A DNA stretch of 64,000 bases from a virus: the IMG/VR virus record IMGVR_UViG_3300028393_000021, one strand, 5' to 3'. Shown in pieces: positions 6,351 through 43,911 of the stretch (position 1 is the stretch's first letter; each line of letters opens with the position of its first letter). The position numbers were made by a program, and so were the translations under genes. The notes beneath the pieces were generated by a model, which was not told the DNA's origin, did not search any database, and saw nothing but the letters and a program-made list of their open reading frames with translations.

Positions 6351-7083
6351 TAATCCAATCACCGTTGTGTGTTTCACACAAGGCAGTACAACTTTCTACC
6401 CAGTCCCCGGTATTACTGTACCAAACTCCATCTATTAGTTTTATTTCGGCCAAGTGTATATGGCCACATATAATACCATCATATCCGCGTTTCTTACAAT
6501 ACGCTGCCAGATTCCGTTCAAAGTGGAATATAAAATCCACAGCTTTTTTTACTCGTCCTTTAAGATACTGGCTAAGACTAAAGTACCCAAAACCAAAGCG
6601 ATGGCGTATCCAATTGAACCTACTATTAAGCGATAAAATGATATCATATGCTCGATCTCCTAAAAATGCTATCCAGGGTGCTAGTCTGGTGATGCCATCA
6701 AACAAGTCACCGTGAATGACTAGATAATGCTTACCATCGGCACCTATATGCTCTATTTGATTGTGTATTTCTACTAGACCAAAACTGAAACCATACGGAA
6801 TCATTGGTCTTAAAAATTCGTCGTGATTACCTGCAATGTATACTACTCTGGTGCCACGTTTGGCATGACCTAAGACCCTACGAACAACATTGGTGTGACT
6901 TTGTTTCCATCGCCATTTGTTCTGCTGTATGCGCCAGGCATCGATGATGTCGCCGACCAGGTACAAAGTCTCACAAGAGTTATGCTTCAAAAAATTATCA
7001 AGTTGCTCCGCCTTGCAATCTCTTGTTCCTAAATGTACATCACTCACACATATTGTTCTATAAGTTTTGAGTTTATTTGACAT
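6205..7083 (-). CDS. metallophosphoesterase of the LpxH/PlcP family (PlcP-like phospholipase C)
   Basis: SDVHLG, LVGDIID, GNHD, HGD, CGHIH, NTGDWVES; C-terminus overlaps the antisense endonuclease gene. Confidence 0.85.
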   Translation of the reverse strand: MSNKLKTYRTICVSDVHLGTRDCKAEQLDNFLKHNSCETLYLVGDIIDAWRIQQNKWRWKQSHTNVVRRVLGHAKRGTRVVYIAGNHDEFLRPMIPYGFSFGLVEIHNQIEHIGADGKHYLVIHGDLFDGITRLAPWIAFLGDRAYDIILSLNSRFNWIRHRFGFGYFSLSQYLKGRVKKAVDFIFHFERNLAAYCKKRGYDGIICGHIHLAEIKLIDGVWYSNTGDWVESCTALCETHNGDWIIIQLVGNQFQPVTVRPVHSDQILTGELCVPWFEQNGFSVLRYQDRDSK

Positions 7084-38654: not shown

Positions 38655-39746
38655 TTACAAGTCCGGTAATTCTTCGTATGTTACAGAGTCCGACATTACC
38701 CCAATAACATAATTCGTACTTTCAGTTTCCTGAAGTGCCGACTGCTTCTTGCCGATGTTGACATGCTTATTAAACCATGGGATAGGACTAGATTTAGGAT
38801 GTTCACCTAGATACTTAATGCCAATATCCTTGAGACGATTAAATGCGGTATAATCAACAAAATCGCTTAGGATAGCGGCATTAAGACCAATAACTGGTCC
38901 TAGTTTAAACAAATAGGTTGCCCAGGCCTTTTCTTCTTTTATAACTTCCATATACATAGCATAAACTTCATCTCGACATTCTTCAACTAGATTAGCAAAA
39001 TCAGCATCATCTTTTACTACATTATTAATAATCCAGGCAGTCCAATCTGCGTGTAGGATTTCGTCTTGTAGGATCAAGCTGATAATGTTGCCATTACCGA
39101 TGTAGATTTTATTCTCTACCATGGCTAGACTTGTGGCAAATGAAACCATAAAGCGGAACGCTTCTAATGCATAGCTAGCATGTAATGCAAGCCAAATGGC
39201 TTTCTTATGTTCGTGTAGATCAATATCCTCACCACATGCTTTTCGACAATTGAGAATGTGTAAGGCTTCGTAGTAGCGACCAATACTAGCAGCCATTTCT
39301 ACAATTTCTGTAGTGTCGTGAATCTTATTAAATTCTTCTTTAGGTACTCCATATACGTTACGAATAATGTGACTGTAGCTTTTGCTATGAATATTTGTCT
39401 CGAACATCGACCAAATAGATACTAACGACTCAAGTTCAGGTAAACTAACAACGGGACTAAAAATTTGAACCGGTGCTCGACCCTGAATGCTGTCTAATGC
39501 TGTCTGTCTTAACAAGTTACTGGTAAAAATATGTTTAACTGCCTCACTTGCATCTTTGTGGTCCATTTTGTCTTTAGTGAGACTAATTTCCTCCGGCACC
39601 CAAAAAAATCCTCTTTGTAGTTCTTCAAACTTTGCAATTTTAGGCTGTCGATATTCTTCAAATCGTTGCACAGTTACTACACCATCTAAAAACATTTTTC
39701 GTTTTAAATAGTTAGTAGGTTTAGATAGGTCATATGTATTTGTCAT
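38655..39746 (-). CDS. nrdB: ribonucleotide reductase class Ia beta subunit
   Basis: FWVPEE, LDSIQG, ETNIHSKSY, DEILH. Confidence 0.95.
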   Translation of the reverse strand: MTNTYDLSKPTNYLKRKMFLDGVVTVQRFEEYRQPKIAKFEELQRGFFWVPEEISLTKDKMDHKDASEAVKHIFTSNLLRQTALDSIQGRAPVQIFSPVVSLPELESLVSIWSMFETNIHSKSYSHIIRNVYGVPKEEFNKIHDTTEIVEMAASIGRYYEALHILNCRKACGEDIDLHEHKKAIWLALHASYALEAFRFMVSFATSLAMVENKIYIGNGNIISLILQDEILHADWTAWIINNVVKDDADFANLVEECRDEVYAMYMEVIKEEKAWATYLFKLGPVIGLNAAILSDFVDYTAFNRLKDIGIKYLGEHPKSSPIPWFNKHVNIGKKQSALQETESTNYVIGVMSDSVTYEELPDL

Positions 39747-39926: not shown

Positions 39927-40442
39927 CTAATGTTCTGTCACTTTGAATATTTGTTCTAACCATAATTTACAGTCATTCCATTTTTTATATATGTGTGACT
40001 GTCCGCCCGCATTTTCCCATTCTTGACAATTGCTGATTCTATCATCTATCAATATGTCTCCTGATTTGCAATGCTTCCATTTGTCGGTACTGTAAGGACC
40101 AAGGAAAACAGGAATACCGGGAAAATGTTCTTGCGCCCAAAAAACTTTATCTTGTATGGCCCATTGCATGTCGTTGTTGCGCGGTAATGCTGATAGAAAA
40201 AATAAATTCTCTACTTTGCCAGATTCAACAAGATCACGACAATATTGCACTAGGTCATGTGCATTATCTTTCAAAGGCAAATGGCGATAAAATCTAGAGT
40301 TCATTTTGATTTTATCCCAATCCTCCTGGGGAATACGGCCGCCTTCTCTTTCCCATTTCATTTTAAGAAATTCTTCTGCACTAGTATGCCAATCGGCTAC
40401 TACGTCATCCATGTCTAAATATATGTTCATAATTTCATCCAT
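39927..40442 (-). CDS. 5'(3')-deoxyribonucleotidase (HAD, NT5C family)
   Basis: YLDMDDVV, ILIDD, WENAGG. Confidence 0.85.
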   Translation of the reverse strand: MDEIMNIYLDMDDVVADWHTSAEEFLKMKWEREGGRIPQEDWDKIKMNSRFYRHLPLKDNAHDLVQYCRDLVESGKVENLFFLSALPRNNDMQWAIQDKVFWAQEHFPGIPVFLGPYSTDKWKHCKSGDILIDDRISNCQEWENAGGQSHIYKKWNDCKLWLEQIFKVTEH

Positions 40443-41116
40443 TCATTGTCTTGTATTGGAATCCAACCTTTTCTAAAATACTTTATCATATTCATAAAAG
40501 GCCCTGCCTCTTTGCCGTCATCTTTCCAGTTATAATTTTTATTCATAGTCAATCCGTATAACTTACAATACGATGGTTTATTATTGTTAATCCATATATT
40601 GTAAATCTCATCGGCTCTTTTCCATAATGCTCGAGTAACATCGGTCGCCCTAGGATGATTCCAGGGCTTGACTCCAGCATTTGGATTCTTTTCGCCGCGC
40701 TTTGCTTCAGACATGGATTTCAATCCAGATTCTGTAAAACACGATGCATCAAAAGGCATACCAAATTTCCAATGTGCAGATCCCCTTGGCTGATTTTTTC
40801 CAGGATTATTAGGACCACGCATATATTCGGAATATTGTCGTTTTAGCCAACCATATGCTTTATTGTTACGTTGTACATTGCTGTTTGATGATACCATAAA
40901 CATAGCGGCTTTGACAAGGCGTATATTGTTAGGATGTATTTTAACTAACAACAGATGACACAAGTAATGTTCTTCTGGTGTAAGTGATACTAAGTTAGTT
41001 GCTTCATCTGTTCCTTCCATACATCGTGGAACAATATGATGCTTTTCCTTATATCCTTCTAATATTCTGTTTTGTCCTCTCCTTATTATATTATTATATA
41101 TTTTTTGGTAATCCAT
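40427..41116 (-). mobile_element. free-standing HNH homing endonuclease
   Basis: EKHHIVPRCMEGTDEATNLVSLTPEEHYLCH; TAAATA and AGGAG upstream; lies between nrdA and nrdB. Confidence 0.85.
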
Positions 41117-41172
41117 ACAAGTCTCCTGTAAGTTTATTTATCACAACTTACAGAAAACTTATAATTTACAAC

Positions 41173-42153
41173 TCAAAGTTTGCAGGCTAAACAATCCTCT
41201 TCTTCTTCATATATTGTAACAGGTTCTGCTGTTACTAATCTATCACTTTGTGTATTTAAAATATTCTTACTGCCCACTTTATCTATCAGACTATAGTACA
41301 TTGTCTTTAAACCCCACTTGTAGGCCAACATTAAATTCTTTGCTATTAATGTGCCCGGCACCTTGCCATCTTTAAAATGCCTTGGACTATAGAATGTATT
41401 AGTACTCAAACTTTGATCAACATACACTGCAAGTACAGCGGATGTCTTTAAGTATTCAACACAATCCTTTTGATCCCACATCATTTGATAACGATTCTTT
41501 AAACGGCGATATTCTGGAACCACTTGTACAAAACTACCTGCCTTGCTTTCTTTAACACTGATCAGTTCCATGGGCATTTCAATACCATTGGTAGAATTTA
41601 ATACAACACTACTAGACTCAACAGGAGCAACTGCCATAAGTGTAGCATTACGAATACCATACTTGATCATACGAGCACGTAGTGGTTCCCAATCCATGCT
41701 AGAAGTAAAGTCAGTTAATTCGTTAACACCGTTGGCTCTACGTTCCCAAGGAAATACTCCCCGACCGTAGTAAGTGTGTTCGCTACGCAGACAGGGGCCG
41801 CGCTCTTGGGCCAATTCCACACTGGTTTCGGTTAGGTAGTATGCCTGGTGTTCCATCCAACGTTTGACTTCGGCCAGTGCTTCAGGTGTTCCATACTTGA
41901 AACTTTTGCGAGCATGCCAGTAGGCCAGATTTGTGATGCCAACTCCCAACGGTTCAAAGTCTTCGTTAGCCAGTTTACTTTGAATGCTCAAGAAGTCTTG
42001 ATACTGCAATAGGTTGCTTAAACTACGCACCAGCACACGACAGGCTTTTCTCATTTCCTGTGGATTACGGAACGCTCCCCAATTGATTGATCCCAACGTG
42101 CATAAGGCTATCTTTGGTACAGCTCGTGTACATTCTTTTTTAACTATTTTCAT
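41173..42153 (-). CDS. nrdA: ribonucleotide reductase alpha subunit, C-terminal fragment (NrdA-b)
   Basis: IALCTLG, APVESSS, DQSLSTN, KTMYY, C-terminal CLAC; preceded by a 13-aa non-RNR leader MKIVKKECTRAVP. Confidence 0.92.
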   Translation of the reverse strand: MKIVKKECTRAVPKIALCTLGSINWGAFRNPQEMRKACRVLVRSLSNLLQYQDFLSIQSKLANEDFEPLGVGITNLAYWHARKSFKYGTPEALAEVKRWMEHQAYYLTETSVELAQERGPCLRSEHTYYGRGVFPWERRANGVNELTDFTSSMDWEPLRARMIKYGIRNATLMAVAPVESSSVVLNSTNGIEMPMELISVKESKAGSFVQVVPEYRRLKNRYQMMWDQKDCVEYLKTSAVLAVYVDQSLSTNTFYSPRHFKDGKVPGTLIAKNLMLAYKWGLKTMYYSLIDKVGSKNILNTQSDRLVTAEPVTIYEEEEDCLACKL

Positions 42154-42391
42154 TTTTTAATGTTCTTCCTCTATAATAATTTTTATTTTCTTCTAGAAAA
42201 TTATCCATAATAGATAACTCAATCCTGCAATTTGCTGTCCCATTAGTCACCCAGATCCATTTTGCTGACTGCGATGATAAGTGTTTTTTATGTTCCGAAC
42301 TTCTATAATATGGATTATACTTAACCCAGTTATCGGGCGCTAGTTCATTATTAATTAATTGAACCAATTTTGTCTGAAATACTATTACCCA
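42140..42391 (-). pseudogene. homing-endonuclease C-terminal relic between the two nrdA halves
   Basis: No ATG; KWIWVTNG...YYRGR resembles DNA-binding tails of phage homing endonucleases; no catalytic domain visible. Confidence 0.55.
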
Positions 42392-42396
42392 CTAAA

Positions 42397-43911
42397 TTAT
42401 ATTAACAAATCTCCGATATCATCTGTTTCATCTAGTTCTCGAACCTTTTTACGATTTCCATCTTTAAGCAACACTTTATGTTCGCCGGGCAGAGTTAATT
42501 CTTCCCCGGTGTCGAGAGTGATCTTAAATTCACCTTCGTCGTCAATTCTTTGAAATGGATAAGTTGGAAGTAAAATTTCCATACACAAATTCGATTGATA
42601 TATTGGATCCACCGTTGTGTCAAACGGGCCCTGGTTGATGACATTGTCGATATTGACAAGATATATGCGCCCAGTATCAGTACGTTCTTTAAGGATTCCA
42701 GCTTTGAATATCGCATCCGCCGATACAACTTTCTTTTTAACTTTCTTGTCCTGCTCATATTGTAGGTATAACCTTTCGAACTCTTTACTGTCTCTGTAGT
42801 AGGCTTCGTATAGATCCGGAACTTCATGAGGATCAAACAACGTCATCATTTCACCACGTTTATAACGGTTCCAGAACATGGCATTAACTACCACTGAGTA
42901 ATCCATTTGACGCACACGAGTTTCATCAGTACCTTGATTGTTCTTTAATACAATAAGATCTTCAAACTGTGCGTGCCAAATGGGGAATGTAACTGTACAG
43001 CTGGCGTTACGAATTCCGCCCTGCGAGCATGATCTCAAATCTGCAAACCATTTCTTCAAGAAAGGTATCATTCCAGTATGCTTGATCTCACCATTGCGAA
43101 TAGGTGCACCTAAGGGTCTGATTCTGCCTATTTCGAGACCAATTCCGGCTCGTTTTGAGGCATATTTGGCCATCATTTCGCCGCTAGCAAAGATACTGTC
43201 TAAAGTGTCATCTGACGTTATCAATACACACGAGCTAAATTGTTTGGTGGTTGTTCCTAATCCTGCTAGTACCGGAGTAGCTAATGTAAAGTGTCCACTA
43301 CTAGCACATTCATAATATTCTTTTACAAGTTTTAATCTTGTTTCCTTGGGTTCATTATGAAAAGCTGTTGCGGCTGCAATAGCATAACGTACCTGCGGAG
43401 TTTCATAGACCTGTCCAGTGGCACGATTTTGTACAAGATACTTTTCTGTTAACTGTGCTATCGCAGCAAATGTGTATGTTTCATCTTTATCATGGTCGAT
43501 GAAAAGATCAATGATATCCCATTCATCTTCTGTGTACCAATCTAGCAATTTGCTAGTGTACATGCCTGCCTCTGTATTTGTTTGTACAATGCTATAAAGT
43601 TTAGGAGGGTCGTATTTACCATAGACTTCTTTGCGTAGCATACTAACACGCTGACGTCCTGCTACGTATTGGTAATTGACATTGTTAATTTCTGGATTTT
43701 CTGTTTCATCTATCAAATTAACCATAGCTTTAAGCAATAGTTCATCTATAGTTTCTGTGGTCATTCCGTCATGGAGTTCAATTTGAGCTTTGATTTCGAT
43801 CATTGATGGACTAACTCCATCAATTCCTCGGCATGCATGTGCTACTTGTCTTTGTATTTTTTCAATGTCCAATGGAACACGTTGTCCATTACGTTTGACC
43901 ACTGTGATCAT
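42397..43911 (-). CDS. nrdA: ribonucleotide reductase alpha subunit, N-terminal fragment (NrdA-a) with Hint-like tail
   Basis: ATP cone, QFSSCVL, SNLCMEI; last 44 aa resemble an intein block B region. Confidence 0.92.
   Translation of the reverse strand: MITVVKRNGQRVPLDIEKIQRQVAHACRGIDGVSPSMIEIKAQIELHDGMTTETIDELLLKAMVNLIDETENPEINNVNYQYVAGRQRVSMLRKEVYGKYDPPKLYSIVQTNTEAGMYTSKLLDWYTEDEWDIIDLFIDHDKDETYTFAAIAQLTEKYLVQNRATGQVYETPQVRYAIAAATAFHNEPKETRLKLVKEYYECASSGHFTLATPVLAGLGTTTKQFSSCVLITSDDTLDSIFASGEMMAKYASKRAGIGLEIGRIRPLGAPIRNGEIKHTGMIPFLKKWFADLRSCSQGGIRNASCTVTFPIWHAQFEDLIVLKNNQGTDETRVRQMDYSVVVNAMFWNRYKRGEMMTLFDPHEVPDLYEAYYRDSKEFERLYLQYEQDKKVKKKVVSADAIFKAGILKERTDTGRIYLVNIDNVINQGPFDTTVDPIYQSNLCMEILLPTYPFQRIDDEGEFKITLDTGEELTLPGEHKVLLKDGNRKKVRELDETDDIGDLLI

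Follow-up and report, generated by a model that had tools for sequence, protein, structure and literature searches.

How can a ribonucleotide reductase work when the gene for its large subunit is broken inside the active site, and what are the additional residues found on both new ends of the protein? The question was raised by an uncultured T4-like phage, represented by the IMG/VR virus record IMGVR_UViG_3300028393_000021; the whole stretch of DNA analysed, 64,000 nucleotides, is called the window below. In this phage, nrdA, encoding the ribonucleotide reductase (RNR) large subunit, is present as two minus-strand open reading frames (ORFs), one at 42397-43911 for the N-half (504 aa) and one at 41173-42153 for the C-half (326 aa). 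The features of the locus are as follows.

42532..43911, minus strand: native part of nrdA-N, residues 1-460, with ATP-cone, all-alpha domain, first barrel half and the equivalents of C225 and N437/C439/E441 (PF03477, PF00317, PF02867 positions 1-222)
42400..42531, minus strand: 44-aa C-terminal tail of the NrdA N-half, a truncated split N-intein reduced to its C-terminal part from block B on, block A and Cys1 being absent; net charge -5 (PF14890, tail profile, MAFFT, pN/pS)
42397..42399, minus strand: TAA stop of nrdA-N
42140..42367, minus strand: GIY-YIG homing endonuclease relic, last 75 of 258 codons (75/75 identity to the C-terminus of the L088 endonuclease)
42121..42730, minus strand: co-conversion tract, in which identity to L088 is 97-100%, falling to 70-90% in flanking nrdA (sliding identity, 90-nt bins)
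42115..42153, minus strand: 13-aa N-terminal head of nrdA-C, MKIVKKECTRAVP, apparently a split C-intein cut down to its first strand, with neither blocks F/G nor His-Asn; a net charge of +3 and conservation across 24 distinct alleles
41173..42114, minus strand: native part of nrdA-C, second barrel half, with the equivalents of C462, Y730/Y731 and the C-terminal CxxC (PF02867 positions 223-433; alignment to contiguous NrdA)
40427..41116, minus strand: free-standing HNH homing endonuclease gene, downstream of nrdA-C (phrog_655, E 6e-57; weak Pfam HNH/NUMOD3)
38655..39746, minus strand: nrdB, RNR small subunit (PF00268, E 8e-38)

The break falls within a loop flanked by the C439 equivalent (SNLCME, on the N-half) and the C462 equivalent (IALC, on the C-half), and the RNR barrel (PF02867) is divided cleanly, profile positions 1-222 falling to the N-half and 223-433 to the C-half. 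Alignment with contiguous NrdA from close and distant phages showed that the native sequence runs to ...QRIDDEG and resumes at KIALCTL with no residue lost or duplicated; the native part of nrdA-N is 77-91% identical to the contiguous NrdA of IMG/VR relatives. The domain set of a class Ia NrdA (ATP-cone, all-alpha and barrel; PF03477, PF00317 and PF02867) is complete over the two ORFs, and direct reading found all catalytic residues, namely the Cys225 equivalent in FSSC, SNLCME, IALC, the YY pair and the C-terminal CxxC. The first-pass annotation had described nrdA as two genes, broken between the thiyl-radical and resolving Cys at RIDDEG/KIALC, with both halves otherwise intact and nrdB adjacent, and the full-length ORFs, Pfam matches, alignment and catalytic residues agree with it. 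An assembly artefact, which had been named as a possible refutation, is excluded because 45 IMG/VR contigs, as well as other metagenome assemblies, show the identical split with its tails. No close DNA relative was found among cultured phages, and no record in the phage collection searched carries the 44-aa tail. The HNH gene downstream of nrdA-C stands in the same position as mobE in T4, and ahead of it a hairpin at 41116-41163 (-25.3 kcal/mol, z -6.0) sequesters its ribosome-binding site.

Beyond native NrdA, there are 44 aa on the C-terminus of the N-half (42400-42531) and 13 aa on the N-terminus of the C-half (42115-42153). The homology of the tail to Hint domains rests on a library-wide profile search and not on motif resemblance. 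A profile of six diverse tails, searched against 1.84 billion proteins, gave 135 matches at E<=1e-3; these were inteins, except for members of the split-nrdA family and two tails of related sequence carried by a split DNA polymerase. All 19 of the sampled matches outside the family were inteins, and the best E values outside it went down to 5e-15. Moreover, positions 51-92 of PF14890 (Intein_splicing) were matched by each of the six tails (E 0.004-0.03). The Hint homology is limited to the stretch from block B to the split site, which in natural split N-inteins makes up the final ~42 residues, and in a MAFFT alignment with such N-inteins the tail ends at the natural split site. Against PDB sequences, phmmer gave no match to the tail, and a profile search gave a weak one (E 3.5) to residues ~50-66 of the gp41-1 intein (6qaz). 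Judged by these sequence comparisons, the 44-aa tail is a Hint-derived remnant of a split N-intein, as had been proposed from its resemblance to the stretch around block B. The tail length of 44 residues given in that proposal was also correct; its range, 42397-42531, wrongly took in the stop codon at 42397-42399.

We were then interested in whether any splicing chemistry is left. The allele counts given here and below, for charge, reading frame and catalytic residues, cover 24 distinct alleles. Block A is missing in all of them: the residue next to native ...DDEG is E in 22 alleles and otherwise L or I, never Cys, Ser or Ala, and the ~55 N-terminal residues of an N-intein (CLHPD... in related N-inteins) are absent from the tail. 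In the Thr-x-x-His of block B, the His is invariant (24/24) and the Thr position is occupied by P (20 alleles), Q, N, L or K, the motif in this phage reading PGEH. The head, at 13 aa too short for statistics of its own, resembles the start of genuine C-inteins (L133 and P0020). These partners have ~22 further residues, ending in Asn, which are absent from the head together with blocks F and G and the (His-)Asn; the head ends in VP, PG, PP, EG, SG, AP or GG. No Cys, Ser or Thr stands at the C-extein +1 position here, which is K; among other alleles the residue varies (K, S, A, T, L, Q, R or M), so that a nucleophile is not kept there. The complete, splicing-competent split-intein halves of known fractured genes were thus not found. 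Since block A and its Cys1, the Thr of block B, blocks F/G with their His-Asn and a +1 nucleophile are all absent, no peptide bond can re-form and the enzyme must work as two chains; protein splicing at the split nrdA is excluded on sequence grounds. The survey bore out the claims that block A and the N-terminal Cys/Ser are missing, that TxxH has become PGEH, that the C-half begins like the first strand of split-intein C parts without block F and His-Asn, and that splicing chemistry has been lost. In a motif screen of the 135 profile matches, no complete intein was found in NrdA at exactly the tail/head site.

The homing-endonuclease relic that had been noticed between the halves is real, since its 75 residues are all identical to the C-terminus of the intact L088 endonuclease. 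The intact homologues are of the GIY-YIG family, as assigned by Pfam for L068 (E 3e-5) and by PHROGs (phrog_314/5123) for L088 (258 aa), and intact GIY-YIG genes lie between the halves in L068, L031, L083, L087 and L088. In the relic, a 567-nt deletion took the catalytic domain, the start codon and the ribosome-binding site. The arrangement is that of a fractured gene, with two same-strand ORFs, an endonuclease gene between them and its 3' end overlapping the downstream start, here by 14 nt. By comparison of sequences, the cassette was shown to be mobile between diverged nrdA alleles, in view of the mosaic identity to L088 and its polyphyly on the NrdA tree. Relatives of the cassette endonuclease at 58% identity sit in Aeh1-type split nrdA and none in a complete split intein; endonucleases are therefore swapped between cassettes.

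The cassette is common in uncultured T4-like phages, with 45 loci in IMG/VR carrying a tail of the 44-aa type. What lies between the halves differs among alleles, namely an intact GIY-YIG gene, an HNH gene on the other strand, another unknown ORF, a relic or nothing at all, and the tails are kept throughout. On the NrdA tree, all 16 NrdA rows of one clade are of this split-tail type. As the cassette is stable after endonuclease loss, the split active site is a long-lived state and no transient accident.

Taken together, the sequences show that nrdA was fractured by a mobile intein-remnant cassette and that the product is a two-chain enzyme; we consider it likely that tail and head aid its non-covalent assembly. 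The cassette sits in the surface loop that separates the thiyl-radical Cys from the resolving Cys. It is made up of ~44 residues from the end of a split N-intein, then a homing endonuclease gene that stands free, and lastly what are apparently the opening ~13 residues of the partner C-intein. Gene conversion driven by the endonuclease spreads it among diverged nrdA alleles; in this genome the endonuclease gene was later destroyed by the 567-nt deletion, leaving the tails untouched. When the halves of a split intein associate, the acidic tail and the basic head would be the first regions to come into contact. Binding of the one to the other, or of each to the opposite subunit, probably persists here, and such a contact would help to form the active (NrdA-N/NrdA-C)2-NrdB2 reductase, much as the unrelated tails of Aeh1 NrdA-a/b do. 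By carrying its own assembly aid, the cassette could sit at a site without a nucleophile, where a real intein could not live. A role of the tails in assembly, the docking clamp of the first-pass annotation, is suggested by selection, charge complementarity and the Aeh1 precedent.

On the other hand, the tails could be tolerated debris, the halves joining through the large native NrdA interface alone and the leftovers being kept since their precise removal is improbable. We regard this as rather unlikely. Synonymous sites are saturated (pS 0.816), yet the pN of the tail, 0.176, is as low as that of the adjoining catalytic barrel, and its pN/pS of 0.215 equals the constraint on adjacent NrdA (flank pN/pS 0.22-0.32). 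Among the six diverse tails, 25 of 44 positions are invariant. A search of the 24 alleles for a truncated or frameshifted tail found none, though a stop anywhere in a debris tail would be harmless, and the charges of tail (-1 to -6) and head (+1 to +5) are opposite in every allele. What favours debris comes from three sides. In Aeh1, the halves make a heterodimer without the tails, which are required only for dimerisation of that heterodimer (PMC3045599), so that a clamp between halves may be the wrong picture. The split DNA polymerase in L137/L138, which is broken inside motif C, bears a related truncated N-intein tail with no matching head and without the conserved His, and a tail can therefore persist alone; the same polymerase hints that the remnant-tail route was taken more than once. 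Finally, AlphaFold2 gave no confident tail-head structure: both a 155-aa read-through mini-construct (mean pLDDT 49.8) and the 912-aa full read-through fusion (mean pLDDT 49.3) were modelled with low confidence, and Foldseek of the low-confidence mini-model returned no match at E<=0.001, Npu DnaE appearing only at E~3.5.

That the fractured nrdA is dead and the phage uses the host RNR is very unlikely. The endonuclease between the halves has itself decayed, yet both halves are full-length ORFs with all catalytic residues, the flanks are under purifying selection, the arrangement is fixed across the clade of 16 NrdA rows, and an intact nrdB adjoins.

Covalent rejoining of the halves, either at the RNA level by a group I/II intron or ribosomal bypass, or at the protein level by an unusual trans-splicing intein, seems hardly credible. 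T-even phages are known for group I introns in nucleotide-metabolism genes, and the N- and C-halves are in one frame here and in 17 of the 24 distinct alleles. A shared reading frame had held as a rule in the first 6 of 6 loci and was broken by 7 of the 24 alleles; the excess of same-frame alleles may reflect shared descent. Against rejoining, a permissive Rfam search found no relevant family at E<=5 in the window region and none at E<=1 in four related loci. The DNA between the halves ranges from -1 to 1126 nt and its contents are unrelated among alleles, selection on the tail acts at the protein level, and every residue required for protein splicing is absent. Moreover, the head has its own ATG, and in the endonuclease-free L110/L112 the stop and start overlap as ATGA; both features support separate translation of the C-half.

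The tail was also considered as a diverged duplicate of the native strand after the break (KIALCTLGS...), made by target duplication at insertion: tblastn of the N-half against contiguous NrdA of Xanthomonas phages and cyanophages continued through the tail, and MAFFT laid it over that native segment, but profile searches rule this origin out, as the tail alone had no PF02867 match even at E<=10, matched Intein_splicing in 6 of 6 cases and, apart from the split-nrdA family and the two polymerase tails, retrieved inteins only.

The reading of a two-chain reductase with intein-derived tails can be compared with three known systems. The closest is Aeh1 NrdA-a/mobE/NrdA-b, whose tails are experimentally essential for activity and were speculated, in the Discussion of Crona et al. 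(2011), to be degenerate split-intein remnants together with mobE (PMC3045599). Both are class Ia NrdA split in the same C439/C462 loop, so that active-site residues lie on separate polypeptides; both have a homing endonuclease gene between the halves, nrdB downstream, and, at both new termini, tails foreign to NrdA whose net charges are opposite (here -5 for the tail and +3 for the head). In contrast to the basic N tail and acidic C head of Aeh1, the polarity is reversed here, the break point is off by a few residues, and the endonuclease is GIY-YIG (a relic) instead of the HNH mobE. No similarity was found between the two kinds of tails, which are not homologous, the one described here being Hint-derived. 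True Aeh1-type tails are present in other members of the same phage group, the motif KVKK-x-x-[VI]-DKF occurring in L072 and L077 and the variant KVKKS-[ND]-VDEF in L144 and L145.

The second system is the fractured genes described by Dassa et al. (2009), in which functional split inteins flank a free-standing endonuclease, including NrdA loci split at the thiyl-radical Cys (PMC2677866). The order (host N-part with N-intein piece, endonuclease, C-intein piece with host C-part) is the same, the endonuclease 3' end overlaps the next start, and, like those of NrdA-2, IMPDH-1 and NrdJ-1, an acidic N piece goes with a basic C piece (PMC2677866). Aligned with such N-inteins, the tail covers their C-terminal end as far as the natural split site. 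Unlike in these genes, the N-intein lacks ~55 residues at its N-terminus and the C-intein ~22 at its C-terminus, every catalytic residue is missing, and the insertion lies 17 residues downstream of the known NrdA intein site, with no +1 Cys/Ser/Thr. L131 has, besides the remnant, a genuine split intein at the C439 site.

Third, the naturally split inteins gp41-1 and Npu DnaE assemble by 'capture and collapse' (doi 10.1101/546465). By alignment, the tail takes in strand beta4 and, from the second C2-symmetry unit, the globular part, and the head corresponds to beta6, the C-intein start, a region described as making the first electrostatic contacts (doi 10.1101/546465). The first symmetry unit and the last strands are absent here. 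The deleted part includes beta3, with which the first C-intein strand of gp41-1 mainly zips (doi 10.1101/546465), an observation that stands against a clamp.

By its sequence, the split nrdA with Hint-derived tails adds a further form to the genes-in-pieces reductase known from Aeh1, and it gives evidence of that kind, in a different tail family, for the split-intein origin on which Crona et al. speculated. Two phenomena described separately, split-intein fractured genes and the tail-assembled Aeh1 reductase, are now linked, and the locus offers sequence evidence that intein fragments can be kept and selected after all splicing chemistry is gone. It is also a directly testable system, consisting of two halves with or without tails plus NrdB, and its 44- and 13-residue pair could be of use in protein engineering as a small, natural docking module that acts non-covalently. 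With about an even chance, in our judgement, this pair is a naturally minimised, chemistry-free split-intein half that still does the 'capture', a portable heterodimerisation tag freeing an endonuclease cassette from nucleophilic insertion sites to fracture essential genes at new positions. If true, this would document a route from protein splicing to non-covalent assembly, the origin guessed at for split phage reductases, in which a selfish protein-splicing element was apparently reused as a non-covalent assembly tag in an essential enzyme.

The first-pass annotation had described nrdA as two genes broken at RIDDEG/KIALC with both halves otherwise intact, and the ORFs, the cut Pfam barrel and alignments with contiguous NrdA proteins all agreed with this description. 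The Pfam RNR barrel model was divided exactly between the two ORFs. Native NrdA runs up to ...QRIDDEG and restarts at KIALCTL with no residue missing, and the catalytic residues are complete, being shared out over the two chains. nrdA-C has its own ATG, and no intron was found at this locus or at four related loci by Rfam in permissive mode. The split is real and is not rejoined at the RNA level. From nrdA to nrdB, the features are:

42397-43911, minus strand: nrdA-N, 504 aa, barrel profile positions 1-222
42400-42531, minus strand: 44-residue tail, extra residues on the N-half
42140-42367, minus strand: 75-aa ORF (endonuclease relic) between the nrdA halves
41173-42153, minus strand: nrdA-C, 326 aa, barrel profile positions 223-433
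42115-42153, minus strand: 13-residue head, extra residues on the C-half
40427-41116, minus strand: HNH endonuclease gene, downstream of nrdA-C
minus strand: 5'-nucleotidase gene, after the HNH endonuclease gene and before nrdB
minus strand: nrdB, last gene in this order

The HNH homing endonuclease gene has its GGAG and AUG buried inside a 19-bp hairpin (41116-41163, minus strand; -25.3 kcal/mol, z -6.0) with AUAAAUA in the loop. Translational control has been described for mobE, which lies between the nrdA pieces of Aeromonas phage Aeh1, and for T4 intron endonucleases, and the predicted hairpin appears to resemble it.

Six diverse tails were scanned alone against Pfam. All six matched Intein_splicing at profile positions 51-92 (E 0.004-0.03) and none matched the RNR barrel. 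A 44-column profile built from the six tails was then used against 1.84 billion representative proteins, giving 135 proteins at E<=1e-3, with outside-family matches from E 5e-15. In all 19 matches sampled, the part aligned to the profile lies in an intein splicing domain according to Pfam; the hosts were T4-type portal proteins, DNA polymerase A, UvsW-type helicases, a radical-SAM enzyme and a topoisomerase. Several matches were C-terminal ends of natural split N-inteins from fractured genes. In a MAFFT alignment, the tail overlies the last ~42 residues of such N-inteins, and both end at the natural split site. The ~55 residues with which the N-inteins begin (starting CLHPD...) have no counterpart and native DDEG directly adjoins the tail, bearing out the proposed absence of block A and the N-terminal Cys. 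By homology, the tail is a split-intein fragment, as had been proposed from its Hint-like stretch around block B. The proposed change of TxxH also held, the block B His being invariant in 24 alleles and the Thr position being Pro in 20. An early impression that the tail was a likeness of the native strand after the break was overturned by the Pfam scans and the profile search.

The head is 13 residues long, too short for statistics. Heads read MK[IVL][IVT]KK[EV]... and end immediately before the expected start of block F. They lack block F and resemble the start of a C-intein, as had been claimed: the C-intein that partners one of the closest N-inteins opens with MKVTKIERC... (L133), and a genuine C-intein from a related nrdA, located at the C439 site, opens with MIKIKKIKV... 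(P0020). Position 1 of the tail is Glu, Leu or Ile across alleles; block A, block F/G and the terminal Asn are all absent from tail and head, and no conserved nucleophile follows the head. Judged by these motifs, the pieces have no splicing chemistry, in line with the earlier claim.

In NrdA, the classical intein site directly precedes the thiyl-radical Cys (Dassa et al., PMC2677866); the split described here is 17 residues further downstream. One related locus, L131, carries a true split intein at the classical site together with the remnant, and its 96-aa middle gene joins a C-intein to the tail through 18 extein residues. There nrdA is in three pieces (L131:2202-6427). A 320-aa endonuclease gene accompanies the split intein at the thiyl-radical Cys; the 96-aa gene comes next and then, past a 164-nt spacer without endonuclease, the C-half. 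Three pieces were also seen at L083:4018-6038, with an atypically split intein at an RSC/SQGG site and the tail-type split further on. In the atypical intein, only 41 nt, which hold no endonuclease gene, separate an N-piece of 18 aa (CLHPDMYVEV...) from a C-piece of 134 aa whose last residues are ...TKN; five similar proteins of 335-344 aa are in the protein collection (P0003, P0006, P0007, P0012, P0017). At L137:1-2171 and L138:2856-4054, a break falls within motif C of a family-B DNA polymerase (...IGD/TDSVF...). The N-part closes with a related truncated N-intein tail of ~41 aa in which Cys1 and the block B His are absent, the C-part has no head, and an endonuclease gene is present in L137 and not in L138. 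This suggests that dead-intein tails are not restricted to nrdA.

A protein search limited to the tail gave 19 clusters carrying it, and a scan with the tail alignment gave 45 tail loci in IMG/VR. The DNA between the halves ranges from -1 to 1126 nt among 24 distinct alleles. It holds an intact 253-262-aa GIY-YIG endonuclease in L068, L031, L083, L087 and L088, an HNH endonuclease on the opposite strand in L084, an unrelated 146-aa ORF in L086, and an endonuclease relic in the window. The relic had been recognised earlier; its 75 residues are 75/75 identical to the C-terminus of the intact L088 enzyme, and the remainder of the L088-type gene was lost by a 567-nt deletion. L110 and L112 have no DNA content between the halves and no endonuclease, and retain tail and head in full; the stop codon of nrdA-N and the start codon of nrdA-C share the sequence ATGA (L110:2090-2096; L112:3629-3635), implying probable translational coupling of the two halves. 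The opposite-strand HNH enzyme (363 aa, phrog_655; L084:4737-5828, minus strand; also L103 and L122) shares its PHROG family with the window HNH gene. In 17 of the 24 distinct alleles, whose intervening genes are unrelated, the number of nucleotides from the last tail codon to the head ATG is divisible by three; this excess may reflect shared descent or chance.

Over 23 alleles, pS in the tail was 0.82 (synonymous sites saturated) and pN 0.18, a ratio of 0.215 versus 0.22-0.32 for the 100 NrdA codons on each side. No allele had a shortened tail, and in every allele the tail was net acidic and the head net basic. The codon data show a cassette kept under protein-level selection. In the NrdA tree, 16 tail-type rows formed one fully supported clade and 6 others were dispersed among contiguous alleles, the starred branches requiring at least 4 changes; the nearest relative of the window, L005, has a contiguous nrdA. 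The window and L088 are 97-100% identical from 42730 to 42121, covering the last ~200 nt of the N-extein, the tail, the relic and the head, versus 70-90% further out. This contrast is what endonuclease-driven gene conversion leaves behind when the flanks are co-converted.

The Aeh1 tails, which Crona et al. speculated to be a degenerate split intein (PMC3045599), were unrelated to the window tails when the Aeh1 locus sequence was compared. Clear homology links them to the tails of a second, independent nrdA split in the same loop and phage group (L072:5372-5464 and 6414-6500; L077; L144; L145). In this second type the N tail is basic and carries the KVKK-x-x-[VI]-DKF motif shared with Aeh1, the head is very acidic and the endonucleases are GIY-YIG enzymes, whereas Aeh1 has the HNH mobE. 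Since the L144/L145 endonuclease is 58% identical to that of the window-type cassette, endonucleases are exchanged between the two tail systems. No cultured phage with the window tail was found in the phage collection, and the open-access literature searched contained no description of natural tails made from a truncated split intein. The split NrdA of Aeh1 and its speculated intein origin were already known; what appears new is a tail with sequence homology to a split intein.

Aligned to gp41-1, the tail corresponds to strand beta4 plus the globular portion of the second C2-symmetry unit; the head matches the stretch where beta6 begins. It is exactly this second unit that the natural split site divides, and charge-driven association of split inteins starts in this region (doi 10.1101/546465). 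Because tail and head map to this region, we infer that the pieces probably still associate and help the two-chain large subunit to assemble. Two AlphaFold2 runs gave a mean pLDDT near 50, and a fold search with the predicted model gave no match at E<=0.001. The Aeh1 tails can be essential, and they act in dimerisation of the heterodimer, not in joining the halves (PMC3045599), so the window tails may serve that assembly step or another. Taken together, the alleles show a mobile cassette, in which truncated intein halves around an endonuclease gene are inserted in the active-site loop of NrdA and maintained by selection on the protein.
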